A stretch of 12,379 nt of DNA. It comes from Candidatus Bilamarchaeaceae archaeon. GTDB taxonomy: Archaea; Micrarchaeota; Micrarchaeia; Anstonellales; Bilamarchaeaceae. Location of the stretch: the NCBI GenBank assembly GCA_038851325.1, contig JAWCKZ010000017.1, forward strand, positions 1-12,379, in the 5' to 3' direction. Made by a program: the position numbers. This document shows positions 1 to 3,000 of the stretch, one piece after another. Position 1 is the first letter of the stretch, and each line of letters opens with the position of its first letter.

Positions 1-3000
1 TGCAGAGAATTAGAATTGAACCTATTGTAGGATTGAAATCCGACCATCACAGGGGTGGTGACGTACCCTGTTCTTATTAGAATTGAACCTATTGTAGGAT
101 TGAAATTCTGTATTTTGAATTTTTCGTCGAGCTCTTGAGATAATTAGAATTGAACCTATTGTAGGATTGAAACTCATTATAACAAGTATATGCCTGCGGC
201 ATTGAAAAAAGCGCTGGTGCAGCGCTAGCTGCTCTTCCAAAGGCCGTGCAGGTTGCAGTATTCACGGGCGAATGCCACGTCCTTCATGTCTATTTTGAAT
301 ACGGCCTCCGGCGCGTTACCTGGCTTAAGGAATTTTATATAACTCTGGCCATCCTTCGTGATAACTTCTATCCATTCGATGTAATGTTCCGGTTCCATTG
401 GATGGGGAGTAGAACCAACTTTAACCCGCACCCCTCCTCTTGTTTTTTCTATCACAGGGATATGTTTCTCTTTGCTTGCATCAACTGTATTTTCTTTTAG
501 CAATTCCATTGGTTTTCCACAGCAGACAAGCTGTCCGATGCTTGCATGCAACACTTTTACTATATTACCACAGATGTTACACTTAAATACTTGCATTAAT
601 TCTGTCATGCTTTCACCACCAAATAACTGTTAACATCTAATTTTTTATATGACTCTTTTCTAAATTTTTCCTTTTCTTTCAGAGGCATAGTTGCATCAAC
701 ACCCATCTTCGCAGTTACTCTTGTGTTTGGGTCTGCTGATGGATCAAGAGAAGAACCAAGCTGATTCTTAAAAATAAAAACATCTTTATCAGCTTGAACG
801 CGTGTAGCGATTGCCCACTCGACCTCCTCCATATTATTTACATCTATGTCATCATCGACGATAACGACATGCTTAAGTGATTTATGACCTGCAAAGGCTG
901 CCTCTATTGCCTTTCTTCCATCTTCTTCAGTCTTCTTTTTTATTGCAACTACTGCATGGAGCCAAGAACATCCGCCCTGTGTTATGTTAACCCCTGTGCA
1001 TTCTGTAGCTTTATTAACTTCCCGCCATATTGTGGGTTCTTTCGGCATCCCCATGAGGATCTTATGCTCTGCTCCTCCCGGAAGAAGAACATGATGGATT
1101 GCATTCTTGCGATGGTGTATCTTTGTTATTCTTATCACCCTTTGTCTTCTCACGACATCATACGTGCCTGTTAGATCGAGAAAAGGCCCTTCGTTTGCTT
1201 CCTCTCTAGTAACAACCCCTTCATAAACGAATTCAGCATCTGCTGGAACTTCTAACCCGTTCTCAAGACGAACCGTTGTAACGGGCATGAGAGTATTCGC
1301 TATTCCCATCTCATCAGCACCAAGTTGAACAGATGTCGCTCCTGCCAGAAGAACATTTATCGGTGCGCCAATGACTATGGCGACGTCGAGCTCTTTGTTG
1401 CCTTCATCTGCTCTTTTTATGAATTCATGAAGATGCCTTGGGAGTATTCGCGCGACTACTTTGTTTTTTCCGATCACCATGAGCCTATGAAAAGAAAGAT
1501 TCCTTCCATATTTCTCATCTTTCGCGATGACAACCCCAGATGTGTAATACGGTCCTCCATCCTTTTCAAGATGCAAGGGAACAGGCATCTTAGCCAAATC
1601 GACATCATAGATCGTGTTTTCGAGTACAGGCGCTTTATCCCTTTCCACAATTCTTGGCTCTGATGGATTTTCAATCGCATAAAGCATTTTTTTGATAAGC
1701 TCCTCTTTTTTGCAACCAAGACAATCCGCAACGAGTTCTTTTGTCGCAAACACATTCCCAACTATCTTGAATTTAGACTCCTTTACATCTGCCATCATCG
1801 GCCGAGGCTCTACCGAATGAAGAAGGGAAGCAACCTCGAGCTTCAGTGAAAGAGCCTTCTTCGGTTTCAAAAGTCTTCCTTCTGCATCAAGCCTTTCAAC
1901 AAATTCTCGAAAAGAGGACATAATGTCACCACAGCTAATAGCTTGTTGGAAATATTTATCTGTTTTGCGCCATTACCCCCATCGCCTAGTCAATTTGTGT
2001 TCTATACCAAGGTGATCGAGCACCCTTGCTACAACGAAATCTATTATATCACCGACGCTTTTTGGGTTGTGGTAGAAGCCTGGGGAGGCAGGCATTATTA
2101 CACCACCGGCAAGCGCTATCTTTCGCATGTTCTCGATTGCTATAAGAGATAATGGCGTCTCTCGAATAACGAGTATCAACTTTTTCCTCTCCTTCAGCGC
2201 TACCTCTGCAACCCTTGTTATAACACTTGACGATATTCCATTCGCGATTTCACCAAGAGTTTTTAATGAACAAGGTACCACGATCATTGCATCCGGCGGG
2301 TTAGAACCAGAGACGTAAGGACAGGAGAAATCCTCTTCTTCGTAATCAGCTTTCGGTATTTTTACATTCTCAAATTTAGCAACCTTTTTGGCAGCATCGC
2401 TAACCAAAACAGTTACATCATGCTTGTCTTTTTTTAGGATTTCAGTAAGTCTCGTTGCATATCGAAGGCCAGAGGCCCCTGTTATTGCTAAAACTATCTT
2501 CATAGCACACCATCTGAGAATAATGCGGGCTTCCCAGATTGCCGCTGGTTGCAGATGTGGAGCTTCTGCCGTCGGCTCAACCCTGTTTATCTGCGAGCAT
2601 GGACCTTATCGCTTATGGCTGCTCCTTTGCCGGCTCTGCTGGCAATAGTTTGAACGCCAGGTTTCAAAGCATCCGGCCTGACCAGGTTCGCAATAAGACC
2701 CACCGCGCAGGACAGGGTCTCAACACCTAAGACAAAAGACGCATCTACAAACAGAGACGCACTGGGCATTCGGCCTGTCTAAGGGGATTTACAGTTCAGG
2801 GACCCCTAGCCCCCACCTAGCCCGCATATGAATTAGGAAAAAAGCCGTTTTTAAACGTTATCGCAACCGAGAAGGTTACACCGGTGTAAAAGAACCGACG
2901 ATACGAAGCTTCTGATTGCTGGCGTCAACAACAAGAAGTGGATCTCTTTTCCGGTAGGCGATCTCCTTGTCCAAGCTTATCGAATTTTCCAGAACAGTTC

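Follow-up and report, generated by a model that had tools for sequence, protein, structure and literature searches.

We analysed a window of 12,379 nt (the whole stretch of DNA, positions 1 to 12,379 of contig JAWCKZ010000017.1) from Candidatus Bilamarchaeaceae archaeon, the source genome of which (G000) comprises 899,799 bases and is 90.9% complete. On the minus strand, the archaeal SRP RNA profile RF01857 matched positions 2827-2523 over model positions 1-317 (90.6 bits, E 1.1e-19), and the predicted fold of this strand (-131.8 kcal/mol, z -3.76) was equalled in stability by none of 100 shuffles. The locus contains an Alu domain with helices 1-4, the 5e motif, and a helix 8 bearing the symmetric and asymmetric SRP54-binding loops, a tip stem of 2 bp and, after predicted splicing, a GRRA tetraloop. 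The complementarity of the Alu loops also covaries by eye in the DPANN alignment. Helix 6 with its GNAR tetraloop is missing, as the genome-wide survey's note on this DNA had claimed: its 40 model positions are occupied by 0 nt. Conversely, the helix-8 tip holds 49 nt versus 6 in the model. Computed removal of a 45-nt predicted intron yields a mature RNA of 260 nt, the S domain of which is a single unbranched hairpin closed by a GGAA loop. The score of the intron-bearing locus falls below the RF01857 gathering score of 96.5 bits; the intron-free genus mate G072 reaches 104.8 bits. The best explanation of the locus is a genuine, functional and vertically inherited archaeal SRP RNA gene in a reduced form found throughout DPANN.

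Table 1. Features of the SRP RNA locus and its surroundings, in the direction of transcription of the RNA.
Feature	Positions	Strand	Basis
Upstream gene, 294 aa, sole match EF-Tu domain 2	2876..3760	-	context
TATA-like box TTTAAAAA (candidate), 21-28 nt upstream of the RNA	2848..2855	-	by eye
SRP (7S) RNA gene, 305 nt precursor, 260 nt mature	2523..2827	-	RF01857 full-model match, fold z-score
Alu (small) domain: helix 1 5' strand and helices 2-4, complementary loops GGGG / CCCC	2770..2827	-	RF01857 alignment
Helix-6 branch site of other archaea; here helix 5 is continuous into helix 8	2695..2696	-	RF01857 alignment
Helix 8, 5' half: GAAC asymmetric and CAGG symmetric SRP54-binding loops, 2-bp tip stem, tetraloop bases 1-3	2672..2689	-	RF01857 alignment, sequence, computed mature form
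Predicted 45-nt tRNA-type (bulge-helix-bulge) intron in the helix-8 tetraloop	2627..2671	-	sequence
Helix 8, 3' half: final tetraloop base, GG, AGCA, helix 8a	2612..2626	-	RF01857 alignment, computed mature form
Helix 1, 3' strand	2531-2523	-	RF01857 alignment
ubiX-type flavoprotein gene, start 20 nt downstream of the RNA; then ubiD, desulfoferrodoxin	1973..2503	-	context

The 45-nt insert has the features of a bulge-helix-bulge (BHB) intron, namely a 4-bp central helix (GCCG/CGGC) flanked by two 3-nt bulges (GAU and AAA). Excision of 2671-2627 restores the host RNA, recreating exactly the GGAA-loop motif of the intron-free genus mates G048, G051 and G072, and a splicing endonuclease gene is encoded in the source genome. 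We infer from these sequence features that the intron is spliced by EndA, in which case splicing would be required before the RNA of this copy can work. A simple BHB intron has been proposed for the ancestor of the Thermoproteus SRP RNA, at the helix-8 tip where that RNA opens (PMC4731332). A kinship of the SRP intron with 16S inserts was considered and found no support, as a short-word blastn search of the intron against G000 returned only the self-match.

SRP19 and the protein partners of the RNA

Of the canonical two-protein archaeal SRP and its receptor, the source genome encodes an archaeal-type SRP54 (NG and M domains) and FtsY, both with archaeal proteins as their best solved relatives. 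SRP19 was not found, in agreement with the earlier observation. PF01922 gave no match in G000 at E<=10, and a wider archaeal profile, built from 149 of the top 150 SRP19 representatives and run unfiltered over 15,834 six-frame segments, reached a best E of only 0.37, compared to 1e-38 for two true SRP19 controls. Furthermore, SRP19 lies directly 3' of rps8e in two control genomes, and in G000 this position is taken by a convergent gene, with no SRP19 there. By our own reading of its sequence, this gene presumably encodes a methionyl-tRNA synthetase. A search of the ESM Atlas for SRP19-like clusters outside PF01922 returned no usable match and carries no weight either way.

SRP19 is likewise missing from related genomes. 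No match above the PF01922 cut-off was obtained in 176 Anstonellales, 301 Micrarchaeia, 151 Nanobdellota or 121 Aenigmatarchaeota genomes, which are mostly incomplete bins and, being kin, do not count as independent. A second SRP19 profile found none in 251 genomes at E<=0.01, and the complete Ca. Micrarchaeum A_DKE genome contained none either. In Micrarchaeia, weak PF01922 matches (7/176 at E<=0.1, 2/301 at E<=0.01; 13.5-17.3 bits) were rejected as SRP19, and rescoring with the wider profile gave them at most 13.8 bits versus 131-132 for true SRP19.

The survey's own reservation, that the search had missed Sulfolobus among its controls and could overlook a divergent copy, is now settled: outside DPANN, PF01922 recovered SRP19 in 97 of 101 Thermoproteota genomes, although it missed the other four and the Sulfolobus control. 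Since DPANN proteins evolve fast, the RNA might still be bound by a strongly diverged SRP19, or by some other protein, that the profiles overlook. We consider this extremely unlikely, as SRP19 was returned by neither profile, nor by the six-frame search without filters, gene order or either of two published family tables, and the binding site itself is gone.

Those two tables bear out the suspicion that SRP19 absence might already be listed for DPANN. In Table S3 of PMC8204110, SRP19 has a value of 0.0 in Aenigmarchaeota, Diapherotrites, Micrarchaeota, Pacearchaeota and Woesearchaeota, and of 0.80-1.0 in other archaea. In Supplementary Data 25 of PMC13473441, its presence is 0% in each of 12 DPANN groups and in Hadarchaeota, and 91-100% in the seven other groups. 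The main texts of both papers do not contain the term 'SRP', and three small supplementary files of PMC7414124 have no SRP19 row. The review PMC2905702 places SRP19 in all archaeal subgroups and considers a helix 6-8 clamp likely in all archaea. We found no literature on an archaeal SRP RNA devoid of helix 6 in a search that left most subscription papers outside. The absence of SRP19 from DPANN is thus already tabulated.

Helix 6 in the SRP RNAs of DPANN and other archaea

RF01857 matches were obtained in 72 of 81 Anstonellales genomes, 64 of the 72 being 258-275 nt long, as well as in 135 of 151 Micrarchaeia (a tally that includes G240, on which no conclusion depends by itself), 95 of 101 Nanobdellota and 60 of 61 Aenigmatarchaeota genomes. 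We read the best-scoring DPANN matches together with every match of at least 276 nt; for the unfetched matches of up to 275 nt the absence of helix 6 is assumed. Helix 6 was scored from motif spacing, reading by eye and Infernal alignments, automatic fold-walking having been discarded for these counts because it misfolded around 3' inserts and mis-anchored helix 8. The counts exclude two bin contaminants, G013 and the second match of G268. None of the 169 DPANN RNAs viewed (87 from Micrarchaeia, 35 from Nanobdellota, 45 from Aenigmatarchaeota, and 2 more) has helix 6. The spacing between the 5e motif and helix 8 is 40-44 nt in 158 of 167 DPANN RNAs, compared to 81-83 nt in all five non-DPANN controls. 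By eye, the remaining nine are eight motif misses (RNAs of 264-281 nt) and one RNA, from G569, with an insert further down helix 5; none has helix 6. In Infernal alignments, helix 6 is deleted at four DPANN loci but present in two controls; it was also seen in five further non-DPANN controls. The RNA sample does not include Altiarchaeota, Iainarchaeota, Undinarchaeota or Hadarchaeota; a pattern scan for other DPANN returned mostly bacteria, its only archaea being Woesearchaeota, Nanoarchaeia, Aenigmatarchaeota and one Micrarchaeia bin. The trait had been described as one of Anstonellales, a rank that turns out to be far too low: helix 6 and SRP19 are missing as a pair from all Micrarchaeia, Nanobdellota and Aenigmatarchaeota tested, and the event is far older than the order.

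Among full-length matches, 54 of 55 from Thermoproteota measure 295-356 nt and 56 of 56 from a second non-DPANN phylum measure 290-332 nt. The short Thermoproteota RNA, that of G661, measures 267 nt and retains helix 6, most of its Alu domain being lost; a short length alone is therefore compatible with helix 6 if the Alu domain has eroded. The idea that Thermoproteales are devoid of helix 6 proved wrong (PMC2905702, PMC4731332).

The single DPANN genome that seemed to contradict the pattern, a 75% complete bin (G013) with a 327-nt SRP RNA carrying helix 6, had been held up as a potential refutation. The contig that carries this RNA matches a 216-kb Methanomethylicia scaffold (genome L242, which encodes SRP19) over its full 3,904 bp at 99.97% identity, and the genus mate of G013, G002, has a 272-nt RNA of the helix-6-less form. 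The helix-6 RNA of G013 is contamination by a mis-binned Methanomethylicia contig, and the counter-example falls away.

In the DPANN RNAs, the S domain is a continuous helix across the old junction. Over 31 pairs in 46 DPANN RNAs, 93% of cells are paired and 464 cells are changed on both sides, although the structure was derived from the same alignment, which biases the test in its favour. None of 500 shuffles reached the observed value (shuffles 63%, slid controls 37-49%). Changes on both sides occur in all 31 pairs, and the 20 of them that cross the old helix-6 junction all show compensatory changes.

Two other features of these RNAs vary by lineage. The helix-8 tip stem has 2 bp in 82 of 87 Micrarchaeia RNAs, 3 bp in one and inserts in four, and 3 bp in Nanobdellota and Aenigmatarchaeota. 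The tip that is shorter by 2 nt is shared by Trueperaceae, Gemmataceae and Treponema; for Truepera and Gemmata such short-tip ('AA loop') SRP RNAs are already known (PMC4091067). In addition, a variable 3'-strand hairpin, placed roughly where the old junction lay, is found in 28 of 87 Micrarchaeia RNAs, all outside Anstonellales, in a sample enriched for long RNAs. This hairpin was set aside as a helix-6 substitute, as neither its loop nor its length is conserved.

Ancestry and history of the reduced form

The earlier note had called this SRP Bacillus-like and reported the bacterial large SRP as its best match. The architecture bears this out: the locus has an Alu domain and an unbranched S domain without helix 6, and scores 93.0 bits on the bacterial large SRP profile RF01854, well above its cut-off of 60. 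All five DPANN RNAs compared pass the RF01854 gathering score (71.6-119.5 bits). The best match stands only in terms of bits (93.0 versus 90.6), because the E-value of RF01857 is better and this model is the clan winner; the bacterial label reflects a threshold effect, the locus being above the RF01854 cut-off and below that of RF01857. The RF01857 cut-off is likewise missed by 44 of the 72 Anstonellales matches, which is why DPANN SRP genes are missed or called bacterial.

Acquisition of a bacterial large SRP RNA by horizontal transfer, followed by decay of SRP19, would account for this architecture and for the bit scores of the present copy, and the 2-nt-shorter tip is shared with the bacterial lineages named above. 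However, the other four DPANN RNAs score higher on the archaeal than on the bacterial model (104.8 versus 101, 188 versus 119.5, 171.9 versus 83.7 and 97.2 versus 71.6 bits) despite the 40-position deletion, and SRP54 and FtsY are archaeal. The sequences thus suggest that the RNA and both proteins are archaeal rather than bacterial imports, and transfer is unlikely, indeed very much so in our estimate.

The two absences coincide, as had been proposed: no DPANN genome was found with only helix 6 or only SRP19. The order of events is unreadable for that reason, and presence and absence alone cannot polarise the change, so that loss or primitive absence hinges on the archaeal root. Of the claim that helix and protein were 'lost together', the joint absence holds, and the loss depends on where the root is placed. 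We regard a single early co-loss of helix 6 and SRP19, at or before the DPANN ancestor, as the probable history, and one loss is what we infer in preference to primitive absence. Under the root used in PMC13473441, the posterior for SRP19 falls from 1 in the ancestor of Archaea to 0.3 in that of DPANN.

Several independent losses in DPANN lineages during genome reduction would agree with the high DPANN gene-loss rate (PMC13473441) and with the dispensability of SRP19 (PMC2905702). They are made quite improbable by the same junction and the same 40-44-nt spacing in three phyla, by the lack of any intermediate (a helix-6 stub, or the helix without the protein) among the 169 RNAs, and by the 0% SRP19 in all 12 DPANN groups of Supplementary Data 25.

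A more substantial competitor, although still rather unlikely in our judgement, is that DPANN never had the module: they would have retained the bacterial-large-type SRP of the last universal ancestor, helix 6 and SRP19 having arisen once, after the DPANN split. The particle would work in the same way under either history. The outgroup, Bacteria, has neither helix 6 nor SRP19, and the best tree under outgroup rooting in PMC13473441 (maximum likelihood) places the root between DPANN and other archaea, which outgroup tests did not reject. No remnant of helix 6 was seen in any DPANN RNA viewed, and SRP19 is missing even from large-genome Altiarchaeota (PMC13473441). The 5e-helix 8 spacing is 41 nt in DPANN and 41 nt, by eye, in one bacterial large SRP (L394), but clean excision at a three-way junction would yield the same spacing. 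In PMC13473441, a root on the DPANN branch is rejected by the best-fitting reconciliation model, which gives higher DPANN loss rates, and SRP19 is dispensable (PMC2905702). Hadarchaeota also lack SRP19 in PMC13473441, so losses occur, unless Hadarchaeota belong to the same branch. If primitive absence were true, the lack of the arm would count as a rare structural character in support of rooting Archaea on DPANN.

Early co-loss, the reading we prefer, might also extend to Hadarchaeota. Their lack of SRP19 fits a proposed DPANN plus Hadarchaeota clade, grouped by a uS7 insertion in a 2026 preprint (10.64898/2026.06.17.729505); that a shared loss unites the two is, for now, a tentative and somewhat doubtful suggestion. 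More generally, the absence of helix 6 offers a rare RNA-structural character for DPANN monophyly, for the placement of Altiarchaeota and Hadarchaeota, and for the archaeal root.

Probable working of the particle and comparison with known SRPs

Without helix 6, SRP19 has no binding site and the site for SRP54 is part of a simple hairpin, as it is in bacteria. The particle would then consist of SRP54 alone, bound to an RNA whose Alu domain is RNA-only and whose S domain is unbranched, like the Bacillus large SRP. SRP54 would make direct contact with both helix-8 loops, the symmetric and the asymmetric one, there would be no helix 6-helix 8 clamp to assemble or open, and the SRP54 particle would pass ribosomes to FtsY. 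In other archaea, helix 6 packs on helix 8 through tetraloop adenosines and SRP19 clamps the tips (PMC2905702, PMC6098224). RNA binding by archaeal SRP54 does not need SRP19, and Haloferax can do without the latter protein (PMC2905702). By analogy with this biochemistry and the Haloferax deletion, assembly is probably independent of SRP19.

In bacteria, the free GNRA loop tethers Lys399 of FtsY, a role lost in mammals (PMC4091067, PMC6781444). By analogy, the freed GGAA loop could tether FtsY again, a possibility to which we give slightly less than even weight. Lysines 275-276 of the G000 FtsY lie in a helix matching the bacterial docking site. In the E. coli register they would occupy the tetraloop-docking position. 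The same lysines are found in the FtsY of Pyrococcus and Sulfolobus; as the docking lysine is also present in archaea with helix 6, it is no evidence of a reversion to the bacterial tether.

The SRP RNA of a cultivated nanohaloarchaeon reaches an RPKM of ~174,000 (PMC10266531, supplement), and its 5e-helix 8 spacing, read by eye on the reverse complement, is 41 nt. This case indirectly supports expression of a helix-6-less SRP RNA.

Helix 6 and SRP19 are the textbook divider of archaeal and eukaryotic from bacterial SRP, and a supergroup without both alters that picture. The DPANN SRP is a natural minimal archaeal SRP in which the function of helix 6 could be probed. With the canonical archaeal SRP RNA (RF01857; Methanocaldococcus jannaschii, Archaeoglobus fulgidus) it shares helices 1-5 and 8, the 5e motif, the SRP54-binding loops, the GGAA loop, and archaeal SRP54 and FtsY. 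It differs by the absence of helix 6, its GNAR loop, the helix 6-8 adenosine clamp and SRP19, by a tip stem of 2 bp instead of 3 in Micrarchaeia and, in the present copy, by the predicted intron. With the bacterial large SRP RNA (RF01854, Bacillus type) it shares the Alu domain, the unbranched S domain and a single protein, whereas its sequence and protein partners are archaeal; the likeness stems from shared core ancestry and the absence of helix 6. The short-tip RNAs of Truepera and Gemmata (PMC4091067) are bacterial and either small or large, and the same tip shortening marks nearly all Micrarchaeia. The permuted circular SRP RNA of Thermoproteus tenax (PMC4731332) is processed by the splicing endonuclease at the helix-8 tip, as predicted here, but T. 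tenax keeps helix 6 and SRP19, whereas the present gene is colinear with an internal intron. Finally, the SRP19 deletion in Haloferax volcanii leaves an archaeal SRP that still works without the protein (PMC2905702, PMC6098224). That mutant was engineered and retains helix 6, whereas in DPANN the RNA arm is absent as well, naturally and across phyla.

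Inserts in SRP RNA, rRNA and tRNA genes

Among the 87 Micrarchaeia SRP RNAs viewed, a sample enriched for long RNAs, four carry an insert at the tip of helix 8: that of the host genome G000 (window 2627-2671) and those of genomes G006 (locus L088), G004 (L089) and G285 (L078). Since G006, which belongs to a different family from G000, shares the 3' half of the window insert, and three genus mates of G000 have an SRP RNA free of any insert at this tip, the sequences suggest that the SRP RNA intron has moved. Intron-like inserts of 16-86 nt were also observed within helix 8 of SRP RNAs from Nanobdellota (L440-L442) and Aenigmatarchaeota (L444, L445, L448, L449, L450, L454), located in the symmetric loop, the tetraloop or helix 8a.

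G000 is an intron-rich genome, as 18 of the 23 tRNA genes found by ARAGORN genome-wide contain an intron; additional introns probably mask further tRNAs. Alignment of its 16S rRNA gene to the model revealed several inserts (42, 44, 102 and 102 nt among those listed), which are probably introns as well.

Coordinates and loci of the features discussed
Feature	Location	Strand	Remark
16S rRNA gene	window 7002-9069	+	2,068 nt vs 1,478-position model
294-aa protein gene	window 2876-3760	-	EF-Tu domain 2 is the sole match
Anstonellales SRP54	L039:1219-2514 (G000:C6:42365-43660); L099-L109		altered GTPase motifs
3'-strand hairpin	L051, L059-L070, L072-L077, L080-L083, L085-L087, L096, L097, L474, L475		
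UGAC/UGGC-type helix-8 loop	L433, L434, L436, L437, L280, L462		
Thermoproteota SRP RNA (G661)	L469:2025-2291		

Neighbours of the SRP RNA gene

Only 20 nt separate the 3' end of the SRP RNA from the start of ubiX (window 2504-2522), and this interval contains no T-tract. Judging from this arrangement, the SRP RNA is possibly cotranscribed with ubiX, ubiD and the desulfoferrodoxin gene, in which case its 3' end would require processing. The neighbouring 294-aa protein looks like a degenerate translation GTPase.

Variation in SRP54 and SRP RNA structure

The GTPase motifs of SRP54 are altered in Anstonellales, with G(L/I)(Y/F)G in place of G(L/I)QG, D(V/T/A)(D/E)RPAA in place of DxYRPAA, and DS(A/S)GR in place of DTAGR; the G000 protein also has TRMD in place of TKLD. 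These changes, which were seen in 12 Micrarchaeota proteins only, may modify GTPase activation.

In SRP RNAs of six Micrarchaeia families outside Anstonellales and of two Aenigmatarchaeota, the 3' strand bears a hairpin, variable in both length and loop, some 7 bp below the asymmetric loop, at a position that mirrors the helix-6 junction. A helix-8 loop of the UGAC/UGGC type replaces GGAA in some Aenigmatarchaeota, some Nanobdellota and one non-DPANN genome. The SRP RNA of the Thermoproteota genome G661 retains helix 6 but has just 12 nt across 53 positions of the Alu domain. A second SRP RNA of genome G268 (L095), on a 3.3-kb contig (G268:C44) that is probably bin contamination, resembles the bacterial large SRP RNA.

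For SRP19, the arCOG01217 entries of Supplementary Data 25 in PMC13473441 give Hadarchaeota as the sole non-DPANN group with 0% SRP19, SRP54 being retained.
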